A stretch of 64,000 bases of DNA from Phycisphaeraceae bacterium. Lineage in GTDB: Bacteria; Planctomycetota; Phycisphaerae; Phycisphaerales; Phycisphaeraceae. Location: the NCBI GenBank assembly GCA_028277745.1, contig JANQFR010000068.1, positions 110,676 through 174,675 of the forward strand, read 5' to 3'. This document shows positions 2,854-42,834 of the stretch, piece by piece. The notes beneath the pieces are model-generated. The model saw only the letters and a program-made list of their open reading frames with translations, was not told the origin of the DNA and did not search any database. A program made the position numbers and the translations under genes. The first letter of the stretch is position 1; each line of letters starts with the position of its first letter.

Positions 2854-2856
2854 GGA

Positions 2857-3005
2857 AAAGCAGGAAAGCAGGAAATACAGAAAAGCAGGAAATGCCGAAT
2901 AGCCAGCCATCGCGGGATGTCTCAAGGGCCGACAAACGCCGCCGCATGTCGGCTCGGGCGGTCCTGCTTCTCTTCATTTCCTGCTTTCCTGTTTTCCTGC
3001 TTTTC
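2857..3005. repeat. Imperfect inverted array of AAGCAGG(A)AA octamer repeats (about 4 units on each arm, about 70 bp spacer) spanning radA 3' end and the start of the next gene
   Basis: Left arm aaagcaggaaagcaggaaatacagaaaagcaggaaatg (2857-2894); right arm ttcctgctttcctgttttcctgcttttctgcttttctgc (2967-3005) is its reverse complement. The spacer contains the candidate start codons 2892 and 2949. Confidence 0.6.
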
Positions 3006-4903: not shown

Positions 4904-4978
4904 CACAAGATGTGACACAACCAACCGCATGAGAAACGGCAAGATTCCAACTGCCCCACTACCGGGTTTCCGGTCGAT

Positions 4979-5036
4979 GCTTAGCCGGCGGGCTACGCCC
5001 GCCTGGTCCGGGGCCGCGCAGCGACCCGGCTAAGCC
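4979..5036. repeat. Repeat family B: structured palindromic element (GCTTAGCCGG..CGGGCTACGCCCG..CCGGCTAAGC), copy 1
   Basis: Near-identical inverted copy at 20707-20764 and a short copy at 22423-22457; all sit at gene 3' ends. Confidence 0.6.
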
Positions 5037-5041
5037 ACCCC

Positions 5042-5917
5042 CTATCTCTCACCGCCCCGCGCCCGATAGGCGCGGGGCGGCTGGCCCATGACCTGGCGGA
5101 ACTGGCGGATGAACTGGGCCGGCCCGGCGTACCCGAACTGGTCGGCGATGACGTAGACCGGCAGGTCGGTTTGTTCGAGGAGGACCGCGGCCTCCTCCAG
5201 CCGGCGGCGGTTGAGCCAGACGCGCGGGCAGACGCCGAACGTGATCCGGAACCGCCGGCTGAAATAGTCCGGGCTGAGCATTAACACGTCGGCGAGGTCG
5301 GCGGGCGTCAGGTGGCCCGCGCCATCGGCGCGGACGCGATCGAGCAGCCGGGCCTGCTGGGCGCGCGTGAAACCCCTGGTCGACGCGTCGCCGGGCTGCT
5401 CCCACCGCCACAGGTCAATCGTCAGCCCGACCAGCAGCGCCCGCAGGCGGGCCTCGTGATGCGGCCCGCCGAGTTGAACCTCGTCGGCGATCCGGTCGAG
5501 TGTCCGTTTGTGTTCGCCGCATCCGTGATGCACGCGGGCCCGCCCCGTGAAGCACAGGTGACGGCCCGCCCGGATCACGGCGAAGTACACCTCCGCGAAG
5601 CGGAAGTGATCGGTCCAGCGGAGGCTGTGAGGTGTTCCCGGCGGGACCCAGCTGAGCATGCCGGGCTCGAGCACGACGTCCTCCCCCGCCACGGTTCCGA
5701 CGCTGCGTCCTTCCAGGGCCAGGAGGACCCAGTGGGCGTCGGCGCGTCGCCCCAAGCACGACCAGCCGTCGTCGCGCACGCCCGTGCCGACGCAGCGGCG
5801 GTGGACCCGCACCTCCGCCGCCCCGCCCGCCAGCGCCGCCAGCCACGGCTCGTCGCCCACCAGGCGACGGGGCAGGTGGACGTTCGATAGATCTACGTTT
5901 GGCGCATACATTTTCAC
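5042..5917 (-). CDS. AraC family transcriptional regulator (cupin sensor plus C-terminal HTH)
   Basis: C-terminal AraC-type HTH (LADVLMLSPDYFSRRFRITFGVCPRVWLNRRRLEEAAVLLEQTDLPVYVIADQFGYAGPAQFIRQFRQVMG); divergent from the GRE activase gene. Confidence 0.85.
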   Translation of the reverse strand: MKMYAPNVDLSNVHLPRRLVGDEPWLAALAGGAAEVRVHRRCVGTGVRDDGWSCLGRRADAHWVLLALEGRSVGTVAGEDVVLEPGMLSWVPPGTPHSLRWTDHFRFAEVYFAVIRAGRHLCFTGRARVHHGCGEHKRTLDRIADEVQLGGPHHEARLRALLVGLTIDLWRWEQPGDASTRGFTRAQQARLLDRVRADGAGHLTPADLADVLMLSPDYFSRRFRITFGVCPRVWLNRRRLEEAAVLLEQTDLPVYVIADQFGYAGPAQFIRQFRQVMGQPPRAYRARGGER

Positions 5918-6903: not shown

Positions 6904-9102
6904 ATGGTCTCGGCTCCGACCGCTCCGGAAATCTCAATGACCCCGATCCTCCAGGCATCGCAGCAGCGCCTGTTCGGCGCCGCCGACGGCGTGTGCCTCG
7001 AACGCGCCCGGCTCGTGACCGAGGCGTGGCGCCGCGGTGAAAACGACCCCACGCCCGTGAAACGCGCCCAGGCGCTCGCCCACGTGCTTCGCCGCATGAC
7101 CCTGGACGCCGACACCAACCCCGTCTTCGCCGGGGCGATGTCCAGCGGTCCGCGCCGGTGGATGCTGATCCCCGAGCACGGCTTCCAGGTCATGGGGCAG
7201 GTCGAAATCGAGCACGATGACCTGCGCGGCTTCCTCGACGACAAAATCCCCGAAGACCTGCGCGCCTTCTGGGCCGGCCGCAGCGGGCCCGGCGGGATGG
7301 GCCACCTCGCGGTGGATCAGGACATCGTGGTCAACCGGGGCCTGCGGTCGGTGATCGACGAACTGGCGGCGTATGACGACGACCGTGACGCCCGGCGCCG
7401 CGGCTATCGCCGGGCGATGCGGATCGCTCTGGAAGCGGTGATCGACTGGTCGCACCGCTGGGCGGACCGGGCCGCGCAGAGGGCCGAGGCCGAGCGTGAC
7501 CCCGCGGCCGCCGCGTATCACCGGCGGGTGGCCGAGGCGTGCCGGCGGGTCCCGGAACACCCGGCCCGCGACCTGTTCGAGGGGCTGCAGGCGATGGCGC
7601 TGGTTCATTCGGCGATCCACCTGGAGGGGCATCACATGTCGGTGTCGGTCGGGCTGCCCGACCGGGCGTTGGCGCGGTTCGCCGACGAGGCCGCCGCCGA
7701 CCCAAACCGCGCGGCCGACCTGTGCGCCGCCTTCGCGCTGAAACTTGCGGAGAACGCTTACACCGGCAAGGGGTCGCTGACGCAGTGCATCACGATCGGC
7801 GGGGCGGACCATCGCGGCGCCGACCAGACCAACGCCGTGACCCACGCGTTCCTTGAGAGCTTCGACCGCGTCGCGGTGTCGGACCCGCATCTTTTTTTGC
7901 GTTGGCATGAGAACCTGGCGCCGGCGGTGAAAGCGAAAGCCGCGGCCATGCTCGCCCGGGGCCGGAGCATGCCGCTGCTGGTAAACGACGAGCCGACCGC
8001 GGGCGGGCTGCTCGACGCCGGCGTCGCGCCGGCCGACGCCTGGGGCTACTGCGTCATCGGGTGCAACGAGTTGGGCGTCCCGGGCCGGCTTTTTGACTCG
8101 GCCGTGCCGATCGGCTGCTCGTTCAACGACCTGTCGCTTCTCAATCAACTGCTGATGGACGATCAGGACGGCGGTTGTCTGGCGAGCATGGAGGCGTTGG
8201 CCGCGGCGTTGGAGGAGCGATACGCCGCCCACCTCGAGCCGTTGCTGCGGCGGCGGCCAGAGACGAAACAGCGCATCGCGGAGACGTTCCCGACGCCGTT
8301 CACCTCCGCGTTGATGATCGACGGCCCCCGCCGCGGGTGCGACCTGATGGCGGGCATGCCCTACGACATCCCCTGCTGCTACACCCGCGGGCTGGCCAAC
8401 GCCGCCAACGCGCTGGCGGCGATCGAGCGCGTCGTGTTCGAGGACCGGGCGATGACGCCGGCGGCGTTGATCGATGCGCTGCGCGACGATCTGGCCGACC
8501 CGGCGGCCGCCGATCGGCTCGCGGCCGCGCCGAAGTGGGGCAATGATGACGACCGTGCCGACCGCTGGGCTTTGACGTTGACGGCGATGCGGGACCGGGC
8601 CCTGGACCGCCTGGCCGCGGCGGGTCTGCCGCGGCCGGTGGTCTGCCACGTGGTGCGGAGCCTGCATCACGTGGACGGCCGGCGGCTCGCCGCCTCGCCC
8701 GACGGCCGCCGCGCCGGCGAGCCCGTGGGCGACAGCCTCGGGGGTGTCTGCGGCACGATGAAGGAAGGGCCCACGGCGACGCTCGCCAGCGTCCTGAAGC
8801 TCGACGCGCGGCGCCAATTCGCCGGGGGCACGAACCTCAATCTGACGCTCCATGCCGGCCAGGCCGACCCGGTGATCCTGAGCGCATTGATCGAGGGTTT
8901 CTTCGACGGCGGCGGCCAGGAACTTCAGGTCGCGGTGCTTCACGCCGACACGCTGCACGCGGCCCGCGCTTGCCCGCAACGCTTCGCCGACCTGGTCGTG
9001 CGCATCGCCGGGCTCAACGCTCGCTTTATCGAGTTGTCGGCGGCAGAACAGGATGAACTCATCCGCCGGGCCGAAGAAGCCGAAGCAGGAGCTCCCGCTT
9101 GA
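6904..9102 (+). CDS. Glycyl radical enzyme, PFL2/eliminase-type (divergent, 733 aa)
   Basis: PFL2-type N-terminus (LERARLVTEAWRRGENDPTPVKRAQALAHVLRRMTLDADTNPVFAG), active-site loop VIGCNELGVPG (Cys-x-Glu), C-terminal glycine radical domain LVVRIAGLNARFIELSAAEQDELIRR; SD aaggaa 8 nt before ATG 6904. Confidence 0.8.
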   Translation: MVSAPTAPEISMTPILQASQQRLFGAADGVCLERARLVTEAWRRGENDPTPVKRAQALAHVLRRMTLDADTNPVFAGAMSSGPRRWMLIPEHGFQVMGQVEIEHDDLRGFLDDKIPEDLRAFWAGRSGPGGMGHLAVDQDIVVNRGLRSVIDELAAYDDDRDARRRGYRRAMRIALEAVIDWSHRWADRAAQRAEAERDPAAAAYHRRVAEACRRVPEHPARDLFEGLQAMALVHSAIHLEGHHMSVSVGLPDRALARFADEAAADPNRAADLCAAFALKLAENAYTGKGSLTQCITIGGADHRGADQTNAVTHAFLESFDRVAVSDPHLFLRWHENLAPAVKAKAAAMLARGRSMPLLVNDEPTAGGLLDAGVAPADAWGYCVIGCNELGVPGRLFDSAVPIGCSFNDLSLLNQLLMDDQDGGCLASMEALAAALEERYAAHLEPLLRRRPETKQRIAETFPTPFTSALMIDGPRRGCDLMAGMPYDIPCCYTRGLANAANALAAIERVVFEDRAMTPAALIDALRDDLADPAAADRLAAAPKWGNDDDRADRWALTLTAMRDRALDRLAAAGLPRPVVCHVVRSLHHVDGRRLAASPDGRRAGEPVGDSLGGVCGTMKEGPTATLASVLKLDARRQFAGGTNLNLTLHAGQADPVILSALIEGFFDGGGQELQVAVLHADTLHAARACPQRFADLVVRIAGLNARFIELSAAEQDELIRRAEEAEAGAPA

Positions 9103-10580
9103 ACACGCTGCTGATCCTGATGGACTCGTTGAACCGCCACTACCTGCCGGCCTACGGCGGGTCGGTGTGCCGCACGCCCAACATGGACCGGCTCGCCGCA
9201 CGCGGCGTGGTGTTCGACAACCACTGGGCCGGATCGCTGCCGTGCATGCCGGCGCGGCGGGACCTGATGACCGGTCGGCTGAGCTTCCTGGAAACCCCCT
9301 GGTCGCCCATCCAGCCGTGGGACCGGACACTCCCGGCTGAGCTGCGCAAGCAACGCCGCGTCGTCAGCCATCTCATCACCGACCACCACCACTACTTCCA
9401 CTCGGGCGGCGAGGCGTATCACACGCAGTTCGATGCGTGGGAGTTCGAGCGCGGGCAGGAGTGGGACCCGTGGCGGCCGCCTCTGGATAACGGCGCCGAC
9501 AAGCCGGCGCACCTCGGGCAGAACGACCGCTGGCCGACCTATTGGTCCAACCGCCGGGCGATGGACGTCCAGAACGACCTCGACCACCCGACGCCGCGCT
9601 GTTTTCAGCGGGCCATCGAATTCCTCGACCGACTCCCCCGCGCAGCGCCCGACTGGTTCCTGCAACTCGAGGTGTTTGACCCTCACGAGCCGTTCGCCTG
9701 CCCGGACGCGTACCTGCGTGAGTTGGGCGACGATTATGCCGGCCCGTTATGCGACTGGCCGAAATACGGACGCGTCACCGAGCCGCCGGAGATCGTGGAG
9801 CACGTGCGCCGGCGTTACGCGGCGTGCGTGCTCATGGCCGATCGCTGGCTGGGGCGGCTGCTCGATCGGCTCGACGACCTGGGCCTCTGGGAGGACACCC
9901 GCGTCATCCTCACCACGGACCACGGGCACCTGCTGGGCGAGGGCGGATGGTGGGGCAAGAACACGATGCGCGACCGGGCCGAGCTGCTGAACATCCCCCT
10001 GGTGGTCGCCGGCGGGGGCGCGCCCCGGGGCGAGCGCCGCGCCGGGCTGACCACCACCATCGACCTGATGCCGACGATCTGCCGCAACCACGGCGCCGAG
10101 CCGCCCGACATCGTCCGCGGCCGCGCCTTGCAGCCCCTGATCGAGAACGATGGGCCGCATCATGACGCGGTCCTCAGCGGTTACTTCGATAAAGACGTGA
10201 ACCTCACCGACGGCCGGTTTCTGTACCACCGGCAGCCCGCCGACGGGGCCGCGGTTTACGAACACACGCTGATGCCTCGCCGGTACAGGGGGTTCGTCAA
10301 GCCGGAGCAACTCGCGTCGGCCGAGTTTGGCTGCTTCCTGCCGCACGCGGGCGACACGCCCCAGATGCGGATCATGCATCGTTCCCGAAGACATGAGCGC
10401 GAGCCCGATGCGCCCTACGCCTCGGACGATCACCCGGTGTTTGACTTGATCGATGATCCTGAGCAACGGCGCCCGGTGAACGACCCGGCGGTGGAAACCC
10501 GCTTGGCGACACAAATGGCGGAACTGCTGGAACGCTGTGGTGCCCCCCCCAGCCAGGCTGACCGGCTGGGTTTCGGTTGA
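9099..10580 (+). CDS. Formylglycine-dependent sulfatase (type I, Cys-type), no signal peptide
   Basis: Sulfatase signature C-x-P-x-R (SLPCMPARRDLMTGR) plus metal-binding N-terminus LLILMDSLN. TTG start at 9099 overlaps the GRE stop (alternative ATG at 9120). Confidence 0.85.
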   Translation: MNTLLILMDSLNRHYLPAYGGSVCRTPNMDRLAARGVVFDNHWAGSLPCMPARRDLMTGRLSFLETPWSPIQPWDRTLPAELRKQRRVVSHLITDHHHYFHSGGEAYHTQFDAWEFERGQEWDPWRPPLDNGADKPAHLGQNDRWPTYWSNRRAMDVQNDLDHPTPRCFQRAIEFLDRLPRAAPDWFLQLEVFDPHEPFACPDAYLRELGDDYAGPLCDWPKYGRVTEPPEIVEHVRRRYAACVLMADRWLGRLLDRLDDLGLWEDTRVILTTDHGHLLGEGGWWGKNTMRDRAELLNIPLVVAGGGAPRGERRAGLTTTIDLMPTICRNHGAEPPDIVRGRALQPLIENDGPHHDAVLSGYFDKDVNLTDGRFLYHRQPADGAAVYEHTLMPRRYRGFVKPEQLASAEFGCFLPHAGDTPQMRIMHRSRRHEREPDAPYASDDHPVFDLIDDPEQRRPVNDPAVETRLATQMAELLERCGAPPSQADRLGFG

Positions 10581-10667: not shown

Positions 10668-10747
10668 AAGCCGGACCTGAGCGGAGCGAAGGTCCGGATC
10701 GAATGGGTGAAAATCATCCGGACCTTCGCTCCGCTCAGGTCCGGCTT
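10668..10747. repeat. Repeat family A: 80-bp palindromic element (two inverted 33-bp units AAGCCGGACCTGAGCGNAGCGAAGGTCCGGAT), copy 1
   Basis: Perfect inverted arms 10668-10700 and 10715-10747; each unit is itself a hairpin (CCGGACCT...AGGTCCGG). Other copies are at 12169-12202 and 29895-29975. Confidence 0.7.
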
Positions 10748-10759
10748 CTCACGCAAGAC

Positions 10760-12151
10760 ATGAAGGATACTGCTTTCATGAGAACTGGATCAATATCGTT
10801 TGGTTGTCTATGTTGGATCATCATGAGCCTGCTCCCTGCCGCATCGTCGCATAGCGCTGAGATTCAAAAAGCGTATCCGGGCCGGGAAGCCGACGCGGCC
10901 TGGCGCAGTCAGGCCCGGCAACGGATCGCACAGCACCGCCAAGGCGAAATGACCGTGCAGGTTTTCGACGCCAATGGACAGCCCGCGCCCAACGTCCCGG
11001 TCCGTGTCGAACAGACCCGCCACGCCTTCGGCTTCGGGACGGCGGTCGGCTGCTACGCTTTTCAGCGAGCCGATGAGAAGGGCGAGAGCTACCGCCGGCT
11101 CATCAAGGACGTTTTCCGGTTCAACGAGATCGTGTTCGAAAACGACATGAAGCCCACCATATGGCGAGCCTACGCGACCGGCGAAGACCCCAAACGCCGA
11201 TGGGAAAACGTTCAGGCGACGCTGGACCACTTCAATCAACAGCAGATCCCCGTGCGCGGCCACTTCCTGCTGCACGGCATGCTCCGCTACGGCAGCCCGA
11301 GATGGGGGGTGAACGACCTCGCGGATTTCGACCGCGACCCACGCGCCCTCGAGGAGCGGCTCGTCGCCGAAGCCGCCGAGCGGGCCGCGTTCATCGGCGA
11401 TCGGGTGGTGGAATGGGACGCGCTCAACCACGTGGTCGGCTGGGGCAGGGACATCAACTGGATCAATCGCACAGGCGACCCCGCCTACGGCGTGAACATG
11501 CTCAAGGCCATGCGCCGAGCCGTCCCCGAAACGGTTGCGCTTTACCTGAACGAAGGCCACATCCTCTCGAACCGTGGGCGTCGCGCAGATCGTTACTTCG
11601 AGGCGGCCAAGGCGTTGCTCGACGCCGGCGCCCCGCTCGACGGGGTGGGCTTCATGGGCCACTTCGCGGTGCACGAAGAGACCGGCGACGTCGGCCGTCT
11701 GACGCCGCCCGCGATGCAGTACGACATCATCGACCGCTTCGCCGCACTCGGCCTCAAGCTCAAGATCACCGAGCTGGACGTGGACGCCGGCGATGACGAC
11801 CAGCTCCAGGCCGACTTCCTCCGCGACACGATGATCGCGGCGTTCAGCCACCCGGCCATGGAGTCCATCGTGATGTGGGGCTTCTGGGAGGGCAAGCACT
11901 GGCGCAAGCGGGCCGCCCTCGCCCGTCGCGACGGCTCGATGAAGCCCGCCGGCGAGGCCTGGATCGACTTGGTTTACAACCAGTGGTGGACCGATCAGAC
12001 CGTCATGACGGACGACCATGGCATGGTTTTGTTGCCCGCGTTTTATGGGCGGTACAACGTGAGCGCGGTCGTCGACGGCCAGCCCGTCAAGGTGTCGATC
12101 ACCCATACCGCCCAGGAGCCGGCGTCGGCCCAACTCCGCCCGGGGTCGTGA
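10760..12151 (+). CDS. Secreted glycoside hydrolase family 10-like protein (endo-1,4-beta-xylanase fold)
   Basis: Signal peptide, then GH10 motifs FNEIVFENDMKPTIW, RGHFLLHG, LKLKITELDV (nucleophile) and VMWGFWE. The acid/base region reads WDALNH rather than WDVVNE. Start at 10760 or 10778. Confidence 0.75.
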   Translation: MKDTAFMRTGSISFGCLCWIIMSLLPAASSHSAEIQKAYPGREADAAWRSQARQRIAQHRQGEMTVQVFDANGQPAPNVPVRVEQTRHAFGFGTAVGCYAFQRADEKGESYRRLIKDVFRFNEIVFENDMKPTIWRAYATGEDPKRRWENVQATLDHFNQQQIPVRGHFLLHGMLRYGSPRWGVNDLADFDRDPRALEERLVAEAAERAAFIGDRVVEWDALNHVVGWGRDINWINRTGDPAYGVNMLKAMRRAVPETVALYLNEGHILSNRGRRADRYFEAAKALLDAGAPLDGVGFMGHFAVHEETGDVGRLTPPAMQYDIIDRFAALGLKLKITELDVDAGDDDQLQADFLRDTMIAAFSHPAMESIVMWGFWEGKHWRKRAALARRDGSMKPAGEAWIDLVYNQWWTDQTVMTDDHGMVLLPAFYGRYNVSAVVDGQPVKVSITHTAQEPASAQLRPGS

Positions 12152-12168
12152 ACGTTTGGCCCTGGGAT

Positions 12169-12240
12169 CAAGCCGGACCTGAGCGAAGCGAAGGTCCGGA
12201 TAGATTTCACCGACCGGGGCCCGCGTCCGCATGCGGGGCT
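12169..12240. repeat. Half-copy of repeat A plus palindrome D (CCGCATGCGGGGCTTA) between convergent genes
   Basis: caagccggacctgagcgaagcgaaggtccggata (12169-12202), then gtccgcatgcggggctta (12225-12242), which is shared with 51203-51226. Confidence 0.5.
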
Positions 12241-12250
12241 TAGCAGCGGT

Positions 12251-15217
12251 TCAATCCGTTCCGCCCGGTTTGGGCTTGACCACCTCGACCCAGTGCTTCG
12301 CCTTGACGTTCAGGAAATCGTGCAACTGATGGCGGCAGGAGATGCCGCAGGCGATGACGGTCGCGTCGCGCTCGGCCGCTTGGCGCACGGCGGGGAAGAG
12401 GCGGTCTTCGCCGACTTTGCGCGAGACGTCGTAATGTTCGTAGCCGAACGACCCGGCCATGCCGCAGCAGCCGGCGCCGGCTTCTTCGCAATGGGTGTTT
12501 TCCATTTTGGCGAAGGCGTTTTCCATGGATCGCGTGCCGAAGAGGGCTTTCTGGTGGCAGTGGCCGTGCAGGAGGATGTCGGCGTGGTCGGAGGTGAGTT
12601 CGACGCCTTGTTCTTCAAGGAAAACGTCGATCATACGCACCTGGTCGGCCACGCGCTGGCCCATCTTGGCGTCATCCATCAGATCGGGCAGGTCGTCAAT
12701 TAAGGCGGAGGCGCAACTGGGTTCGAGGCAGACAATCGGCAGGTCCTGCTTGGCGTAAACATCGAGGTTCTGCATGGTCTTCGTGCCGTCGCGCTTGGCG
12801 TCCTTGACCAGGCCCTTGGACATGCGGGGGCGTTGGCAGCAGCCGGCGTCGGCGAGGAGGACCTCGTAGCCGCAGCCCTCGAGCAGGTCGACTGCGGCGA
12901 CGCCGACGTGCGGCTCCATGTAGCTGGCGTAGGTGTCGTTGAAGAGCACGACCCTGCCCCGCGGGGCGTCCTGGGGCTTGGTCCTGCCGCGCAGCCGGGC
13001 CTTGAGCGGCCGGGTGGCGAAGGCGGGGATCGGCCGGCGGCGGTCGATGCCGGCGATCTTTTCCATAAAGAAGCCGTACCCCGGCAGCCGGGCCATCGCG
13101 TTGGTCAGATGTGCTAGCGGTCCCGCCAGTCGCCTGGCCTGGATGGGCATCTCGCCCATGAGCTTGTAGCCGAGGGGCACACCGTGCTGGTCGTGGCGCA
13201 TCTGGAGGGTGTCGGACTTGAGCTTGGCCATGTCGACGGCGTTGGGGCACTCGCTCTTGCACGCCTTGCAGGCGAGGCAGAGGGCCATGACGCCGTCCTG
13301 GAGCTCCTGGGAGGCGAGGGCGTCGTCGCCGAGCTGGCCGGACATGGCGAGGCGCAGGGCGTTGGCGCGGCCGCGGGTGGTGGCGGACTCGTCGCGGGTG
13401 GCCATGTAGGACGGGCACATCGTGCCGTCGCCGAGTTTGCGGCAGGCGCCCACACCGTTGCACTGCTCGACCGCCAGCGCGAAACCGCCCTGGTCGCGGT
13501 ATTGATAGTTCGAGGCGACCTCGGCGATCCGCTGGGAATAGCCTTCCTGCTGATAACGGAGATTAGCGGTCATCGCGGGAGCGTCGACGACCTTGCCGGG
13601 GTTCATGAGGTTGTCGGGGTCGAAGATGGCCTTGACCTCACGGAAGGCGTGGTAGAGCGTGTCGCCGAACATGCGGGGGAGGAACTGGCCGCGGAGCTGG
13701 CCGTCGCCGTGCTCGCCGGACCACGAGCCGCCGTATTCCATGACCCAGGTGAACGCCTGTTCGGCGATGGCGGCCATTTTCTCGACGTCCTCGGGCTCGT
13801 GCAGGTCGAGGGAGGGGGCGATATGGATGACGCCGACGGAAGCATGGGCGTACTTGGAGACGCGGATGACGCCCATCGAGGCGCAGAGGTCCATGATCTT
13901 GCCGACGTACTCGGCGAGCTTGTCGGTGGGGACGCAGGCGTCTTCGATGAAGTCGCGTCCCTTGACCTTGCCTTTGACGTTGGTGATCAGGCCGAGGCCG
14001 AGCTTGCGGGTGTTCCAGATGTCGGCCTGGTTCTTCGCGTCGCCGAACACGGGCCAGGCGTAGCCGATCTTTCGGTCCTTCATGTCCCGGGCGAAGGCTT
14101 CGGCCCGGTGTTGGGCTTGGTCGGGGGCGTCGCCCATGAACTCGACGATCTGCACGGCCTTGGGCCAGCCGGCGATGAAGTGGGCCATGTGTTTGGTGGC
14201 GGCGTTGACGCGGGCCTCGTCCATGACGACGTCGTCGAGCAGCTCGACGGTGGACGGGCCGTGGTCGAGCATGGCGTCGACCGCGCTCAGCGCGTCGAGC
14301 AGTTGGTTGAAGTGGACGACGCAGACGGCGGTGGCCTTGGGCAGGGGGACGAGCCGGACCTTGGCTTCGAGGAGGACGCCGAGGGTGCCTTCTGAGCCGA
14401 CGATGAGGTTGGCGAGGTTCCAGGCGCGACGGCCCTGATTGTGTTCGCGTCGGGGGCCGATGGGCCCGGTGTAGCCGGCGCCGTCGACGAACTCGTCGAG
14501 GTTGTAGCCCGAGACGCGGCGCATCACCTTCGGGTAGCGGTCGCGGATCTCGTCCTGATGGCGGAGGATGATGTCTTTGACGCCGCGGTAGATGCGGGCC
14601 TCGGCGGACTCGCCCTGGGCCTTGTGTTGCCACTGCTCGTCGTCGACGGGGCCGCACTCGAGGACCGTGCCGTCGGCGAGGGCGACGCGGCAGGAGATGA
14701 CCTGATCGATGGTTTTGCCGTAGACGATGGAGCGGGTGCCGGAGGTGTTGTTGCCGAGCATGCCGCCGACGGTGGCGCGGTTGCCGGTGGCGGGGTCGGG
14801 GGTGAAGTGCAGGCCCAGGGGCTTGAGCTGCTGATTGATGCGGTCGCGCACGGCGCCGGGCTGGACGCGCATCCATTGCTCGTCTTCGTTGATCTCGACG
14901 ATCTGGTCCATGTACTTGGAGCAGTCGAGGATGAGGCCCGTGCCGAAGGTCTGTCCGGAGAGGGAGGTGGCGCCGCCCCGGGCGGTGATGGGCAGGCGGT
15001 GTTGGTGGGCGACGCGGATGGCGGCGACGCAGTCGGCCTCATCGCGGGGGACGACGACGCAGGTGGGCATGACCTGGTAATGCGAGGCGTCGGTGGCGTG
15101 GATGCCGCGGGAGATCGGGTCGAAGCTGACCTCGCCGCGGACGGCGGCGCGGAGTTGCGATTCAAGGTCGGGGGAGGGCGTCATGCGGGGCGGGGCGTCC
15201 GTAGCAGGCGTGGTCAT
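12251..15217 (-). CDS. FAD-binding oxidase fused to 4Fe-4S and CCG domains (YdiJ/GlcD-GlcF-like 2-hydroxyacid dehydrogenase)
   Basis: PCMH-type FAD domain (ARGGATSLSGQ), two ferredoxin motifs (CNGVGACRK...CPSY; CLACKACKSECP) and two C-terminal CCG cysteine-rich motifs (CCQRP, CCGMAGSFGYE); 988 aa. Confidence 0.8.
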   Translation of the reverse strand: MTTPATDAPPRMTPSPDLESQLRAAVRGEVSFDPISRGIHATDASHYQVMPTCVVVPRDEADCVAAIRVAHQHRLPITARGGATSLSGQTFGTGLILDCSKYMDQIVEINEDEQWMRVQPGAVRDRINQQLKPLGLHFTPDPATGNRATVGGMLGNNTSGTRSIVYGKTIDQVISCRVALADGTVLECGPVDDEQWQHKAQGESAEARIYRGVKDIILRHQDEIRDRYPKVMRRVSGYNLDEFVDGAGYTGPIGPRREHNQGRRAWNLANLIVGSEGTLGVLLEAKVRLVPLPKATAVCVVHFNQLLDALSAVDAMLDHGPSTVELLDDVVMDEARVNAATKHMAHFIAGWPKAVQIVEFMGDAPDQAQHRAEAFARDMKDRKIGYAWPVFGDAKNQADIWNTRKLGLGLITNVKGKVKGRDFIEDACVPTDKLAEYVGKIMDLCASMGVIRVSKYAHASVGVIHIAPSLDLHEPEDVEKMAAIAEQAFTWVMEYGGSWSGEHGDGQLRGQFLPRMFGDTLYHAFREVKAIFDPDNLMNPGKVVDAPAMTANLRYQQEGYSQRIAEVASNYQYRDQGGFALAVEQCNGVGACRKLGDGTMCPSYMATRDESATTRGRANALRLAMSGQLGDDALASQELQDGVMALCLACKACKSECPNAVDMAKLKSDTLQMRHDQHGVPLGYKLMGEMPIQARRLAGPLAHLTNAMARLPGYGFFMEKIAGIDRRRPIPAFATRPLKARLRGRTKPQDAPRGRVVLFNDTYASYMEPHVGVAAVDLLEGCGYEVLLADAGCCQRPRMSKGLVKDAKRDGTKTMQNLDVYAKQDLPIVCLEPSCASALIDDLPDLMDDAKMGQRVADQVRMIDVFLEEQGVELTSDHADILLHGHCHQKALFGTRSMENAFAKMENTHCEEAGAGCCGMAGSFGYEHYDVSRKVGEDRLFPAVRQAAERDATVIACGISCRHQLHDFLNVKAKHWVEVVKPKPGGTD

Positions 15218-18129: not shown

Positions 18130-18161
18130 TTCCCGCGGGCATTGCCCGCGGCTTTACCTGC
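18130..18161. repeat. Repeat family C: 19-bp perfect palindrome CCGCGGGCATTGCCCGCGG followed by CTTTAC, copy 1
   Basis: Same motif at 42804-42834 and 25006-25036 (a C variant), all on the + orientation. Confidence 0.5.
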
Positions 18162-20656: not shown

Positions 20657-20706
20657 AGCGAGTCCGCTTGATACGCACCGCCTCCCGCTTATAGAGCGAC
20701 GGGGTT

Positions 20707-20764
20707 GGCTTAGCCGGGCCGCTACGCGGCCCTGGACCAGGCGGGCGTAGCCCGCCGGCTAAGG
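20707..20764. repeat. Repeat family B, copy 2 (inverted relative to copy 1)
   Basis: ggcttagccgggccgctacgcggccctggaccaggcgggcgtagcccgccggctaagg is the reverse complement of the 4979-5036 element with 3 mismatches. Confidence 0.6.
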
Positions 20765-22422: not shown

Positions 22423-22457
22423 ATAGCCGGCGGGCTACGCCCGCCTGGGCCGGCTAT
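22423..22457. repeat. Repeat family B, short copy 3
   Basis: atagccggcgggctacgcccgcctgggccggctat; overlaps the stop codon of the DUF72 gene. Confidence 0.45.
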
Positions 22458-25005: not shown

Positions 25006-25036
25006 ACCGCGGGCCTTGCCCGCGGCTTTCCATCCG
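25006..25036. repeat. Repeat family C, copy 3 (CCGCGGGCCTTGCCCGCGGCTTTCC)
   Basis: Lies between the hpf stop and the PEP-CTERM gene start. Confidence 0.45.
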
Positions 25037-28968: not shown

Positions 28969-29481
28969 TTAAAGACGGAGCCGCATCACCGCTTCGCCGT
29001 CCTCGTATTCGCCCGTGAGTTCAAACCCGTTTTTTTCGTAGAACCCTTGCGGGCCGCCCTCAGCCTGGACCACACTGGTCAGCAACTCGGTCGCGCCCGG
29101 CCGGGTCCTGACGTGCTCGATCAACAGCGCCAGCGCCCGCTGGCCATAACCCATCCCCTGATAGCGGGCGTCGATCATAAAACGCCATAAATAGTACTCC
29201 GGCGGTTCCGGCTGGTCCGCCAGCATCACGAAGCCGACCGGCGTCTCGTCGGCGTACACCGCCCGGAACCACGCGTGCTCCGAGAAATAGGCCTGCGCGA
29301 TGGACACCGCGTTCGGCGCCACGAACTTTGTCTGCTCGTCACGGACCGACAGCCCGCAGATCGTGCGCACGCTGTCCCCGGTCACCTCACGGAGCGCCAC
29401 TTCATCACGGCCGGATGGCGTCGCCTGGGACTCTGTCATCGATCTCCTCAAATCTCGGGTTGCCCCGTGTTGTTCCATCAA
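28969..29481 (-). CDS. GNAT family N-acetyltransferase
   Basis: YQGMGYGQRALALLIEHV...GFYEKNGF acetyl-CoA binding motifs; the start may be at the internal Met (MTESQ). Confidence 0.7.
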   Translation of the reverse strand: MMEQHGATRDLRRSMTESQATPSGRDEVALREVTGDSVRTICGLSVRDEQTKFVAPNAVSIAQAYFSEHAWFRAVYADETPVGFVMLADQPEPPEYYLWRFMIDARYQGMGYGQRALALLIEHVRTRPGATELLTSVVQAEGGPQGFYEKNGFELTGEYEDGEAVMRLRL

Positions 29482-29831
29482 CCGTCATCGGCGGTGGCGC
29501 CGTCTTCATTGGGGGCGATGCGCTCGAAGGTTTCAAAGATCGATGGGTCGTCATCCCAGGCATGGAGTTGGCCGTCGGCCTGCCGCAGCCACAGCGCCGT
29601 GGGGTCGGCCTCGGCTCCGCTCAACACCCGCCAGACCTCCCCCGCGGCATAGACCTTTCCCGTCGGATTCCCGTCTTCATCCAACCTCGGCAGGTCATTC
29701 CTGAGGCGGACCAGGTCTCCCGCACGAAGCCCGCATGAATACTGCTGAATGTTGAATTCGGTGACCGGCACGTAGCGATCTCCGCCCGATTCATCGCCGA
29801 TGCGAAGGATGTACTCGCGCTCCTCGCTCAT
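29478..29831 (-). CDS. Hypothetical protein, 4-nt overlap (ATGA) with the downstream GNAT gene
   Basis: 117 aa with coding-like composition, translationally coupled. Confidence 0.45.
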   Translation of the reverse strand: MSEEREYILRIGDESGGDRYVPVTEFNIQQYSCGLRAGDLVRLRNDLPRLDEDGNPTGKVYAAGEVWRVLSGAEADPTALWLRQADGQLHAWDDDPSIFETFERIAPNEDGATADDG

Positions 29832-29894: not shown

Positions 29895-29975
29895 AAAGCC
29901 GGACCTGAGCGCAGCGAAGGTCCGGATGAGTTGTTTCGACCGTATCCGGACCTTCGCTGCGCTCAGGTCCGGCTT
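29895..29975. repeat. Repeat family A, copy 3 (full palindromic element)
   Basis: aaagccggacctgagcgcagcgaaggtccggat (29895-29927) and its inverted partner atccggaccttcgctgcgctcaggtccggctt (29944-29975). Confidence 0.7.
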
Positions 29976-30022: not shown

Positions 30023-30114
30023 TGGCTTGACATCATACGATCGAAAAACCCAGCACGCAGGGCGTTTGCGCTGCGCTTGTTCTTTGACAATCTGATATCT
30101 GTGCTTAACCGGCC
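30023..30114. repeat. Repeat family E: about 90-bp direct repeat, copy 1 (left boundary of a low-GC segment)
   Basis: ggcttgacatcatacgatcgaaaaacc...gtttgcgctgcgcttgttctttgacaatctgatatctgtgcttaaccggcc; about 85% identical to 32500-32592; contains two TTGACA hexamers. Confidence 0.6.
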
Positions 30115-30461
30115 GGGCCGCGGAGTGTCGCGGGCAGTTCAAACCAGCCGTCACGACCCGGCTCAAACGGCAGCACCTGTTCAACGGCGTCGATATTGAT
30201 CGGCCCATAGATGTGCGGAAAGAGCTGTTCGCCGCCTTCAAGATTTTCGTAACGGATCTCGGAATCCACTTTCTCGCTGTCGATGCACAACAGCACCAAT
30301 CCGGTTTGCCCCTTGAAAAGGAAGTTGGCGATCGAGATCACCTGGTCGGGTTTCGAGCAATGCAGGAAACCGTCCGAGTGAAGGCTCGGAGCCCGATACC
30401 GGCCTGAGGCCTGCGACGCTTCCCAGGCTTCGCGTGAGGTGATGTGCAGGATGGTGCTCAT
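30105..30461 (-). CDS. DUF952 domain protein
   Basis: LHCSKPDQV...QLFPHIYGPINID is characteristic of DUF952; about 56% GC against a 68% background. Confidence 0.7.
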   Translation of the reverse strand: MSTILHITSREAWEASQASGRYRAPSLHSDGFLHCSKPDQVISIANFLFKGQTGLVLLCIDSEKVDSEIRYENLEGGEQLFPHIYGPINIDAVEQVLPFEPGRDGWFELPATLRGPAG

Positions 30462-30652: not shown

Positions 30653-31114
30653 GTGGATGGCGGCACGATACAGGTGGTTGACCCGGATGGCGTTACAACC
30701 AGCACCGGCGCTGTCAAAACGACTGATACCCAAAACAGCACATTGGTGACGCAGCGGGTGAGTTGGCAGTTAACATATCAAGATCAAAATCTGCCCTGGC
30801 GCGGCACCATCAAGGAAGAGATCACCGAATTGTCTATCAGCCAAAATGTGGATGACCCCAAGGGCGATACAATCGGCGCCGCTTTTACGGACGGCGTGTC
30901 TTGGGAGACAGACCCAGATGGGTCGTTTGATGAAACTCACGTTTCAAATTTTCCCGACCCTCTCCCAAATGCAAATAAGTATCACTCTGTAGGCAATCAC
31001 CAAAAGTTTAAGAACATGGAGGATGGGGGCAACGGGTTCGGCGCCACCTTCGAAACATATCACTGGGTGGATGATGCGGGCGCCGGCGGCGCTGACCATA
31101 AAAAGAAGGAGTGA
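30653..31114 (+). CDS. Hypothetical protein (low-GC islet), weak GTG start
   Basis: 153-aa ORF at about 50% GC, Asp/Thr-rich, AT-rich upstream region; coupled (GTGA overlap) to the next ORF. Confidence 0.35.
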   Translation: MDGGTIQVVDPDGVTTSTGAVKTTDTQNSTLVTQRVSWQLTYQDQNLPWRGTIKEEITELSISQNVDDPKGDTIGAAFTDGVSWETDPDGSFDETHVSNFPDPLPNANKYHSVGNHQKFKNMEDGGNGFGATFETYHWVDDAGAGGADHKKKE

Positions 31115-32262
31115 CCGACGTGCCGGCGCCTATCGGTCGATGGCGAATCGTGTTGGGGGTCTTGGTGATCCCCGCGTTTGTCTTTACGGCGTATTATGGG
31201 TTTTCATGGGTCACGCACAAAGAGCGGACCCAAGCCAATCCGTCCCATCCTGCTCCTGCTGGCTCCATGTCAATTGATAGAGAGCCGCGGTCCGGTCCGG
31301 CGGATCCAAGACAGGAACATACGGGGCGGCGCCCGACGCCAAGCTCGGTCACGGCATCTGATTTGGCCGAGGCCAGGCGCGACGAGGCGCCAAAGAAGGA
31401 TCCGTCAGATTTAGAGCGGCTGCCAGAATCATGGTCTTGGAATTTACTGGGCCCGTCTGGGGAAGTGCTTGAGGCGGATACCTGGGAAGAGGCGTTCGCG
31501 GCTATCGATCATTTTGCTTCGAGCGAAGAAGCGACCCAACTTGAGGTGCTTAGAAAATATCAGAGCCTTCTTGATCGCGGGGACCTGCCCCGGGAAGTTG
31601 AAGCCAATGTGCGTCTGCGCATGGGTGCTCATCTTATAGCGCAATACAACGCAGCCAAGGGCGAAGAATCCCGTGATGAAGAGGCCATCCGTTGGTATCG
31701 CGATCTGTTGACACGGTTCAACGGCTGGGAAAATCACTCATCCGTCATGCGCGCAAGGATCCACCTGGGCAATCTATACGACCGTAACAACACCGGAGGT
31801 CCCGCGGCTTCGAAGTCGTTATACCAACGTGTGCTGGATGTTCCTGCCGAAGAGATCGTTTTTGATCATCCAGAGAAACAGCGGTTTAATGTCAATCATA
31901 TCGAAGCCGCTAAAGCGCCGCGGGCCGGGCGGGCGGCCGCTTTTTTGAGCCCGGAACAATCCGAGTTTTGGGATCAGCGTGATCAGGAGCATCAAAGGGA
32001 TCTCTGGGGGCAGCGCATGTATGAGATTGACTGGATCCGCCAAGGCGCGGCTAAATCATTAGCTTATCTTTATATCGAACCTGGGTTAGGGTTCGTCACG
32101 CGTGAGCGTTTGCAGGGGCTTAAAGACTCGCGCCCCGATGACCCTGTGTTTCAGCAAGCCGTCCAGAAGGTGTACGATTGGTACGACGAAGTTAATTCCA
32201 AGCGTCAGACACCCAACTGGGACAGCCTTGAAGAAGATCGGGTCATTGCCACCTTTCAATAA
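31111..32262 (+). CDS. Hypothetical membrane-anchored protein (low-GC islet)
   Basis: N-terminal TM helix (IVLGVLVIPAFVFTAYYGFSWV), then a 340-aa helical soluble domain; GTG start overlapping the upstream stop. Confidence 0.5.
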   Translation: MTDVPAPIGRWRIVLGVLVIPAFVFTAYYGFSWVTHKERTQANPSHPAPAGSMSIDREPRSGPADPRQEHTGRRPTPSSVTASDLAEARRDEAPKKDPSDLERLPESWSWNLLGPSGEVLEADTWEEAFAAIDHFASSEEATQLEVLRKYQSLLDRGDLPREVEANVRLRMGAHLIAQYNAAKGEESRDEEAIRWYRDLLTRFNGWENHSSVMRARIHLGNLYDRNNTGGPAASKSLYQRVLDVPAEEIVFDHPEKQRFNVNHIEAAKAPRAGRAAAFLSPEQSEFWDQRDQEHQRDLWGQRMYEIDWIRQGAAKSLAYLYIEPGLGFVTRERLQGLKDSRPDDPVFQQAVQKVYDWYDEVNSKRQTPNWDSLEEDRVIATFQ

Positions 32263-32499: not shown

Positions 32500-32592
32500 G
32501 GGCTTGACATAATGCAATCAAAAACCTAACATATAGGAGGTTTGCGTTACGCTTGTTCTTTGACAATCCGATATCTGTTGTAAAGCCGGCCG
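32500..32592. repeat. Repeat family E, copy 2 (right boundary of the low-GC segment)
   Basis: ggcttgacataatgcaatcaaaaacctaacatataggaggtttgcgttacgcttgttctttgacaatccgatatctgttgtaaagccggcc; TTGACA-17nt-TAACAT promoter-like spacing and an AGGAGG motif. Confidence 0.6.
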
Positions 32593-32890
32593 CGGGGCGA
32601 GCAACGGGCCGGTAAGGACGGGAATCCGGGGGCCGAGAATCCGGGGTCCGGCGATCCGGGGGTCGGATCGGCGGTTTCCGCGCCTTCCGGCTTCCCGCTC
32701 CCTCCGGCCGGTCCCGTTTGACGCCGCGATTGGCGGGCCGGTCTTGACGGCCTGTGGAGACGGAGCCGGGCGCCCCGCGGTTGATCTTCGCCGGCCTGGG
32801 CGGTTGTGTGATCGCCCGTCGTCCGCGCCGCAGCCGTTCATTCCGCCAAGACCTGACGCGTAGTGAGGCCCACCCCCTTCCGGGGTCGGG

Positions 32891-42803: not shown

Positions 42804-42834
42804 ACCGCGGGCATTGCCCGCGGCTTTACTCTGC
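42804..42834. repeat. Repeat family C, copy 2 between the convergent ansB and amrS genes
   Basis: gaccgcgggcattgcccgcggctttactctgc. Confidence 0.5.

Follow-up and report, generated by a model that had tools for sequence, protein, structure and literature searches.

Five hairpin repeats in a Phycisphaeraceae genome segment probably belong to a REP family associated with a RAYT-like protein

What are the perfect inverted repeats that lie between the genes of a 64,000-nt stretch of DNA from a Phycisphaeraceae bacterium (assembly GCA_028277745.1, contig JANQFR010000068.1, positions 110,676 to 174,675; hereafter the window)? An earlier note on this DNA had likened them to repetitive extragenic palindromic (REP) sequences and bacterial interspersed mosaic elements (BIMEs), possibly targeted by a REP-associated tyrosine transposase (RAYT), to miniature inverted-repeat transposable elements (MITEs), and to small-RNA or terminator structures. 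Our analysis favors, with a probability of roughly 85%, the view that the five repeat units of the window are members of a REP family of Phycisphaerae/Planctomycetota, on whose hairpin a RAYT-like Y1 HUH enzyme encoded elsewhere would act. The repeats are of a known kind, in an under-described lineage.

The window contains five copies of a 32-nt unit, AAG-CCGGACCT-GAGCGNAGCGA-AGGTCCGG-AT, at three extragenic sites. All five match the pattern AAGCCGGACCTGAGCGNAGCGAAGGTCCGGAT with 0 mismatches in a search that tolerated up to 3, and 100 dinucleotide-preserving shuffles of the window gave 0 matches with 3 mismatches permitted. A covariance model built from 26 family members recovers these five units only (52.9–54 bits), the next best match scoring 12.6 bits. 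Doublet 1 comprises a left arm on the plus strand (10668–10699; 54 bits, E = 2.9e-12), a 16-nt spacer (CGAATGGGTGAAAATC, 10700–10715) and a right arm on the minus strand (10716–10747; 53.2 bits), whereas doublet 2 comprises a left arm on the plus strand (29896–29927; 52.9 bits), a 16-nt spacer (GAGTTGTTTCGACCGT, 29928–29943) and a right arm on the minus strand (29944–29975; 54 bits). A single unit lies on the plus strand at 12170–12201 (54 bits). The sole variable position among the five is N, the middle base of an apical triloop, which is G in both arms of doublet 1, C in both arms of doublet 2 and A in the single unit.

Both doublets are arranged tail-to-tail, with their 3′ (AT) ends facing each other, and a repeat finder independently reported the two inverted pairs, with arms of 32–33 nt that are 100% complementary and stand 16 nt apart. 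The earlier note's inventory of two inverted pairs and one single unit agrees with the five exact matches, and its coordinates are correct to within 1 nt. Its unit length of 33 bp holds for doublet 1, the unit being otherwise 32 nt long, and its description of the doublets as 80-bp perfect palindromes applies to the arms but not to the spacers. Because these arms surround non-palindromic, mutually unrelated spacers, the 80-bp elements are perfect-armed hairpins rather than full palindromes, and the lack of relationship between the spacers also indicates that doublets 1 and 2 are not recent copies of each other. The single unit, on the other hand, looks like one half of a doublet-1-type doublet, since a 42-nt inverted match (90%) between 10706–10747 and 12170–12211 extends 10 nt beyond the unit and into the spacer. 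Consistently, the reverse complement of the doublet 1 spacer resembles the 3′ flank of the single unit (shuffle p ~0.005), whereas other spacer similarities are marginal.

Each unit reads 5′-AAG, CCGGACCT, GA, GC, GNA, GC, GA, AGGTCCGG, AT-3′ and is predicted to fold as an 8-bp stem (CCGGACCT/AGGTCCGG) followed by a tandem GA/GA mismatch, a 2-bp GC stem and the GNA triloop, leaving the 5′ AAG tag unpaired. The d(GCGNAGC) sequence is a classic, unusually stable DNA mini-hairpin, and tandem G·A/A·G pairs stack well; the middle base of the triloop is therefore expected to be neutral. Folded as single-stranded DNA, the doublets reach −47 to −50 kcal/mol against approximately −14 for shuffled sequences (z = −12 to −14) and the single unit reaches −10.7 kcal/mol (z = −2.5), so that the proposal that each unit can itself fold is borne out by the energy of the single unit and by covariation in its stem.

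This covariation emerged from a variant search that permitted up to 5 substitutions and did not require pairing. The variants it returned differ chiefly through compensatory stem changes (CCGGGCCT/AGGCCCGG, CCGGAGGT/ACCTCCGG and CCGAGTCT/AGGCTCGG; as 6-mers, GGGCCT/AGGCCC, GGAGGT/ACCTCC and GAGTCT/AGGCTC), and the apical GAGCGNAGCGA is almost always unchanged. Across 26 distinct units, 95.8% of the cells are paired and double changes occur in 7 of 10 pairs; 0 of 500 shuffles reach the observed value, and the signal collapses once the partners are slid. As part of this 26-unit set was picked by requiring pairing, we take the mismatch-tolerant search to be the unbiased result.

Compensatory changes around a fixed loop point to a folded single strand and therefore speak against a duplex operator. 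Double-stranded binding sites for a regulator or a nucleoid protein, for instance a carbohydrate-utilisation operator, would account for a palindromic sequence next to a sulfatase gene and a glycoside hydrolase family 10 (GH10) xylanase gene, but the same unit occurs beside unrelated genes in other genomes and one window doublet adjoins a DUF952 gene and an unnamed open reading frame (ORF). We regard this explanation as very improbable.

To follow the unit beyond the window, we scanned one genome per species of GTDB for the exact 23-nt core GGACCTGAGCGNAGCGAAGGTCC and obtained 43 stretches, mostly from metagenome-assembled genomes (MAGs) of Phycisphaerae/Planctomycetota. The REP/BIME-like reading is supported by these data, as the hairpin repeat is scattered through the extragenic DNA of several Phycisphaerae/Planctomycetota genomes: no coding-like ORF reads through 48 of the 51 units in planctomycete loci. 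The family divides into two subfamilies. In one, AAG-...-GGAT(C), the units are identical to those of the window; the other, GACG-...-GGGT, is found in Tepidisphaera-like genomes. Conservation ends at the AAG and AT(c) borders; of 29 AT-type units, 25 have the 5′ tag AAG, and of 14 GT-type units, 9 have GACG. A metagenome collection held no exact 32-mer, and 12 of its stretches contain the 23-nt core, two of which carry the RAYT homologue described below.

Units occur in the related genomes as singles and as tail-to-tail and head-to-head doublets, with spacers of 13–20 nt in the doublets of L014, L024, L029, L044, L052 and L053 (L numbers denote individual loci). In 8 of 9 AAG-type doublets N is identical in the two arms, compared with an expectation of ~0.4 per doublet from base frequencies in this tally, and the arms of the L029 doublet share a stem variant as well. 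We interpret the doublet arms as co-derived for these two reasons, as in the model of REPINs (inverted REP doublets).

The same core is present at least 15 times in Niastella soli, a Bacteroidota isolate (L007 5660–5859, L012, L026, L027, L033–L036 and L038), where the copies bear a TTAAC tag, partly form 59-nt tandem arrays and precede runs of the heptad GTCTGCC. These Niastella soli core loci showed no Y1 gene, and the shared core reflects either transfer or convergence. Single core copies were also found in unrelated taxa (L001, L005, L021, L042, L054, L055, L060, L063 and L064), including Coriobacteriia, Nocardioides, Lachnospiraceae and the haloarchaeon Salinibaculum. The core is followed by a T-run in Salinibaculum and by a terminator in Lachnospiraceae, and it adjoins a tRNA gene in L063. 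These copies exceed the ~0.07 chance matches estimated for 22 fixed bases in this collection.

In seven loci from other genomes or metagenomes, a gene of ~175 codons adjoins units or diverged versions of them and provides a link to a transposase. Units stand on both sides of this gene in six loci (L024, L044, L045, L052, L053 and L058) and on one side in L062, which supports the proposal that the repeats are RAYT targets, the gene encoding a protein of the IS200/RAYT fold. Four units within 700 bp of L024, a MAG that has units identical to the window's, form two head-to-head doublets around a 173-aa ORF whose stop codon overlaps the adjoining unit. The homologue is enclosed by AAGCCGCGGGCTGAGGCGCAGCCGAAGCCCCGGAT and its relatives in Planctomycetales ZRK34 (L044), by AAGCCGCTTCTGAGCGCAGCGAAGATGCGGAT and enlarged-loop units in a JGI metagenome (L045), by diverged units in two Logan contigs (L052 and L053) and by GACG-type units in a second JGI metagenome locus (L058), while a further JGI metagenome locus has one GACG-type unit beside a fragmented homologue (L062). 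The diverged units were detected via the covariance model, and the usual order is (−)(+), gene, (−). In a Tepidisphaeraceae locus (L047), the homologue is flanked instead by a larger composite palindrome containing GA-GGGC-GCA-GCCC-GA, present as two direct copies of ~110–130 nt at 1800–1935 and 2565–2700, in place of simple 32-nt units. In L058, each of the two units that flank the RAYT-like gene has a truncated 5′ half-unit (ACGCCGGACCTGAGC...) immediately upstream (4962–4986 and ~5644–5668); these half-units may be footprints of cleavage and rejoining.

The RAYT-like gene adjoins an AP_endonuc_2 gene in L024 (1568–3837), L052 (196–2941) and L053 (788–2211), and a Gfo/Idh/MocA gene on its other side was confirmed in L024 and L052. 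The recurrence of this neighborhood suggests that the gene is vertically inherited and resident rather than a hopping insertion sequence (IS). The L024 gene is inverted relative to these neighbors, as if it had been flipped between the flanking inverted repeats.

The bracketed protein is, judged from its sequence and predicted structure, a divergent RAYT-like clade. At least 204 close homologues, mostly from Planctomycetota, were retrieved; a dozen are named RayT by JGI and some homologues carry PF01797, and a full-library profile search counted 1637 clusters (50% identity) at E ≤ 1e-3, 621 at E ≤ 1e-10 and 155 at E ≤ 1e-30. In an alignment of 36 homologues, H98 and H100 (HxH) and Y157 are invariant, as is an N-terminal segment W..W..GDxRGFR...HSSGDY..PP..EH. 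Using Pfam PF01797 (Y1_Tnp) and NCBIfam NF047646 (REP_Tyr_transpos) as family references, we found that Y1_Tnp matches 22 and REP_Tyr_transpos 25 of the 36 at E ≤ 0.01, and no other family recurs. When the family profile was compared with Protein Data Bank (PDB) sequences, Y1 HUH transposases took the five top places, the first of them going to the E. coli RAYT (4er8), whose HMH and YI motifs align with the HxH and Tyr of the family. Furthermore, the AlphaFold2 model (mean predicted confidence, pLDDT, 84.8) has Y1 transposases as its top 22 Foldseek PDB matches, including ISDra2, ISHp608, IS200 TnpA and 4er8 at E = 1.8e-4.

These findings bear directly on the MITE proposal, according to which the arms of the 80-bp elements would be terminal inverted repeats of a deleted IS of the DDE type, mobilised in trans. 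Two perfect inverted arms of 32–33 nt separated by a short spacer in intergenic DNA have the expected appearance. However, neither doublet is bordered by a target-site duplication (GTGATG and CTCACG around doublet 1, CGTGAA and GATTCA around doublet 2), the arm is found alone both in the window and in most related loci, and each arm is itself a hairpin with a covarying stem. Head-to-head and tail-to-tail doublets both exist, with unrelated spacers, and the sole recurrent neighboring gene codes for a Y1 HUH protein and not for a DDE transposase. The earlier MITE-like reading is thus disfavored by the missing target-site duplications and by the existence of single units, and we give it very little credence.

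The same gene places the repeats close to the described REPtrons, in which a dispersed extragenic hairpin repeat brackets a Y1 HUH gene (PMC2817692, PMC3733652, PMC6006769, PMC8266576), as exemplified by the E. coli REPs with YafM/RayT (PDB 4er8) and by the REPINs of Pseudomonas fluorescens. Shared features are the ~32-nt extragenic hairpins, their occurrence as singles and as inverted doublets in both orientations with short spacers, the single Y1 HUH gene bracketed by repeats, and subfamily differences among the repeats that go with differences in the RAYT homologue. The E. coli-type GTAG-3 REPs also have an outer stem, non-complementary dinucleotides and a small GC-closed apical loop (PMC3733652). 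The present family departs from the REPtrons in its AAG or GACG tag, the published superfamilies being GTAG and CGTC (PMC3733652), in an apical GA/GC-GNA-GC/GA module that is far better conserved than the stem, and in copy numbers that are low so far. Its proteins differ from REPtron RAYTs in being ~175 aa long, in the conserved segment (GDxRGFR...HSSGDY..PP..EH) that separates strand 1 from helix A, in having YIL.H in place of YIHxNP and in scoring below the Pfam and NCBIfam cut-offs.

Other counterparts are found in the survey by Quentin et al. 2018 (PMC6006769, Table S1), which lists 'atypical' REPs of planctomycete RAYTs under subclass 2.6. These include the REP of Planctopirus limnophila, GTGG-CACGCTCT-GA-GG-TCCT-CC-GA-AGGGCGTG-GT, and that of Rubinisphaera brasiliensis, ...ATC-GC-G[A/C]A-GC-AGG... 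Planctomycete REPs built as stem, GA, 2 bp, loop, 2 bp, GA and stem appear in the table, for example GTGGCACGCTCTGAGGTCCTCCGAAGGGCGTGGT (PMC6006769). As in our units, an internal loop, of the GA/GA type or 3 nt in size, separates an 8–9-bp stem from a 2-bp GC stem that carries a small loop, and one of them has a GCGNAGC mini-hairpin with a variable middle base (GCG[A/C]AGC). Their sequences are nevertheless different and start with a GTGG or GTGC tag, and the subclass 2.6 RAYTs carry NH[LIV]H and YIH[QN]NP, both lacking in the present family.

The clade may be related to class 3 TnpA_Y1 of the same survey, reported from Planctomycetes, Acidobacteria and Proteobacteria (PMC6006769). Class 3 proteins resemble ours in their median length of 178 aa, extended N-terminal conservation, W[TA] motif (here GRIWA) and planctomycete hosts, and their genes are bordered by hairpins of an atypical kind that recur in the genome. 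The published motifs are NHVH and YV[VI][AENY]EQ, and hairpins such as CCGAGCCGCGACCGTAAGGGAGCGGA have a CnGA foot, whereas we observe xHAH, YILxH and an AAG or GACG tag, a comparison that was made by published descriptions only. Neither the REP table of that survey nor the searchable literature contains the exact REP sequence of the window; in the latter, a full-text search for the loop matched unrelated primers only.

The IS200/IS605 elements ISHp608 and ISDra2 provide the best structural matches of the flanked protein and would share with it the recognition of single-strand hairpins and the HUH/Tyr chemistry, here predicted. Unlike these elements, our hairpins are dispersed without the gene, the gene occupies the same chromosomal place in three genomes and no TnpB partner was seen. 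Dispersed hairpins together with a fixed gene position therefore indicate REPtron-like rather than IS-like behavior.

We read the window copies as non-autonomous REP members because they occur as singles and inverted doublets and because repeat variants track the bracketed Y1 gene. By analogy with the characterised systems of E. coli, Stenotrophomonas and Marinomonas, a unit exposed as single-stranded DNA would fold into the hairpin that serves as substrate for a cognate, single-copy Y1 HUH endonuclease of the RAYT/TnpA_REP type, presumably encoded elsewhere in the genome of the window. After binding the folded strand, the enzyme would cleave single-stranded DNA adjacent to the hairpin and join it again, thereby spreading and maintaining the repeats, which would be mobile now or would have been so formerly. 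The window copies would then be non-autonomous passengers in intergenic DNA.

Several observations weigh against this interpretation. The RAYT-like protein of L024, P0001, matches NCBIfam REP_Tyr_transpos at E = 2.8e-6 (27.3 bits, below the curated cut-off of 80) and Pfam Y1_Tnp at E = 0.015 (15.8 bits, below the cut-off of 23). The hidden Markov model (HMM) from alignment A1 detects no RAYT homologue in the window, so a cognate RAYT in this organism, and its action on these hairpins, are predicted on the strength of the analogy. The related incomplete MAGs hold 4–9 exact-core matches each, far under classical REP counts of >100, with five units in the 64 kb of the window. The canonical 5′ GTAG or CGTC tag is not present in the family. 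Finally, the closest GH10 relatives are 57% identical and lack synteny, and thus offer no pair of empty and filled sites from which mobility could be read. The same HMM detected no homologue in the other 42 genome loci, and a search for the regular expression Y..NP over the ORFs of the window and 43 loci returned 0 matches; as the clade has YILxH, that expression is too narrow, and the HMM was used instead.

The contrast between a nearly invariant apex and a freely covarying stem raises the question of which part of the hairpin the enzyme reads. We put forward, as a doubtful but testable hypothesis, that the clade comprises distinct REP-associated Y1 HUH enzymes that recognise mainly the invariant apical module (GA/GCGNAGC/GA) and not a 5′ GTAG-type tag; on this tentative reading, the ~620 clusters (50% identity, E ≤ 1e-10), the insert between strand 1 and helix A and the sub-cut-off scores would all belong to one group. 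The core in Niastella soli and the matched triloop bases in doublets fit recognition of the apex, and the matched bases would also suggest copying or homogenisation of each doublet as one unit. If this is true, the two recognition strategies described for TnpA_REP would be joined by a third.

In agreement with the earlier note, gene boundaries confirm that the three sites are intergenic in a window of 64% G+C whose real genes have a G+C content at third codon positions (GC3) of ~0.85. Doublet 1 lies 88 nt past the stop of the sulfatase gene (9099–10580) and 76 nt ahead of the start of the co-directional GH10 gene (10823, a start set from an identical 442-aa database protein, P0121). The single unit follows the GH10 stop (12151) by 19 nt, on the sense strand, and lies 50 nt from the end (12251) of a convergent FAD-oxidase/4Fe-4S gene (12251–15217). 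Doublet 2 is located between two minus-strand genes, the DUF952 gene (30105–30461) and the unnamed 117-aa ORF (29478–29831). The suggestion that the copies flank carbohydrate-active or islet genes thus holds in so far as the sulfatase and GH10 genes adjoin them, but the link appears incidental, the flanking genes in other genomes being different.

This arrangement could suit hairpins that act primarily as RNA elements of the adjacent carbohydrate genes (terminators, 3′ stabilisers, or cis-regulatory or small RNAs) and are repeated by need. The hairpins are very stable, the single unit closely follows the GH10 gene in the sense orientation, doublet 1 separates two co-directional genes, and E. 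coli REPs are known to stabilise upstream mRNA (summarised in PMC3733652). We found, however, no T-run after any of the five units, none of which is called by a terminator scan, and no match to Rfam at gathering thresholds in the whole window; at E-value thresholds only generic long-hairpin (microRNA-precursor) models appear, all below their gathering scores. The small-RNA and terminator readings of the earlier note are not supported by these results. Moreover, the neighboring genes in other genomes are unrelated, and units that flank a Y1 HUH gene and are nearly identical across loci argue for copying and not for independent selection. An RNA function fits a secondary, exapted role, but not the origin of the repeats, and as a primary explanation we judge it improbable; the repeats may nevertheless affect transcripts secondarily, for example if a 3′ hairpin protects the mRNA of the GH10 or sulfatase gene. 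Interpreted as REP units, the three intergenic palindromes are explained as selfish or domesticated repeats and not as regulators of the sulfatase and GH10 genes. For Phycisphaerae, in which REP systems have hardly been described, the results add a REP family together with a divergent clade of RAYT-like proteins.

Other candidates were set aside: a hammerhead ribozyme (CUGA...GAA), as its CUGANGA core is incomplete and no hammerhead family is among the Rfam matches, and attC and CRISPR readings, on anatomy. The window contains no tRNA genes.

An artefact is excluded by independent assemblies, one of which is the Logan unitig SRR20820739_317270 (L049, with the GH10 gene). It corresponds to window positions 10731–12196 and thus starts within the right arm of doublet 1 and ends within the single unit. 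We attribute these ends inside units on both sides to the breaking of de Bruijn assembly graphs by multi-copy repeats. For annotation, this is a warning that these repeats break short-read assemblies.

The window holds further repeats. A second, unrelated palindromic family occurs at 4979–5042 (+) and 20701–20763 (−), with a partial copy at 22424–22453 (+), and consists of an outer stem CTTAGCCGG...CCGGCTAAG that encloses the hairpins GGCGGGC-TAC-GCCCGCC and GGGCCGCG-C/T-AGCGRCCC. The second of these inner hairpins has a GCGNAGC-type apex, and the long copies are 94% complementary over 63 nt; they may represent a further REP family of this genome. A short hairpin, CCGCGGGC-MTT-GCCCGCGG, followed by CTTTMC, recurs at 18133–18157, 25007–25031 and 42805–42829 with 92–100% identity and looks terminator-like. 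A 59-nt direct repeat containing TTGACA is found at 30044–30102 and 32520–32578 (83% identical), the second copy abutting a weak REP-like hairpin (AAAGCCGGCC...GGCCGGTAAG, 32583–32614). The genes between the two copies (30653–32262) have a GC3 of ~0.58, compared with ~0.85 elsewhere, and no Pfam match, and this region may be a foreign islet. Lastly, a patch rich in AT and in purines at 2855–3005, made up of AGCAGGAAA-type repeats with an inverted copy ~70 nt away, is predicted to form a ~150-nt hairpin of −49.8 kcal/mol (DNA parameters), in a window that otherwise has 64% G+C.

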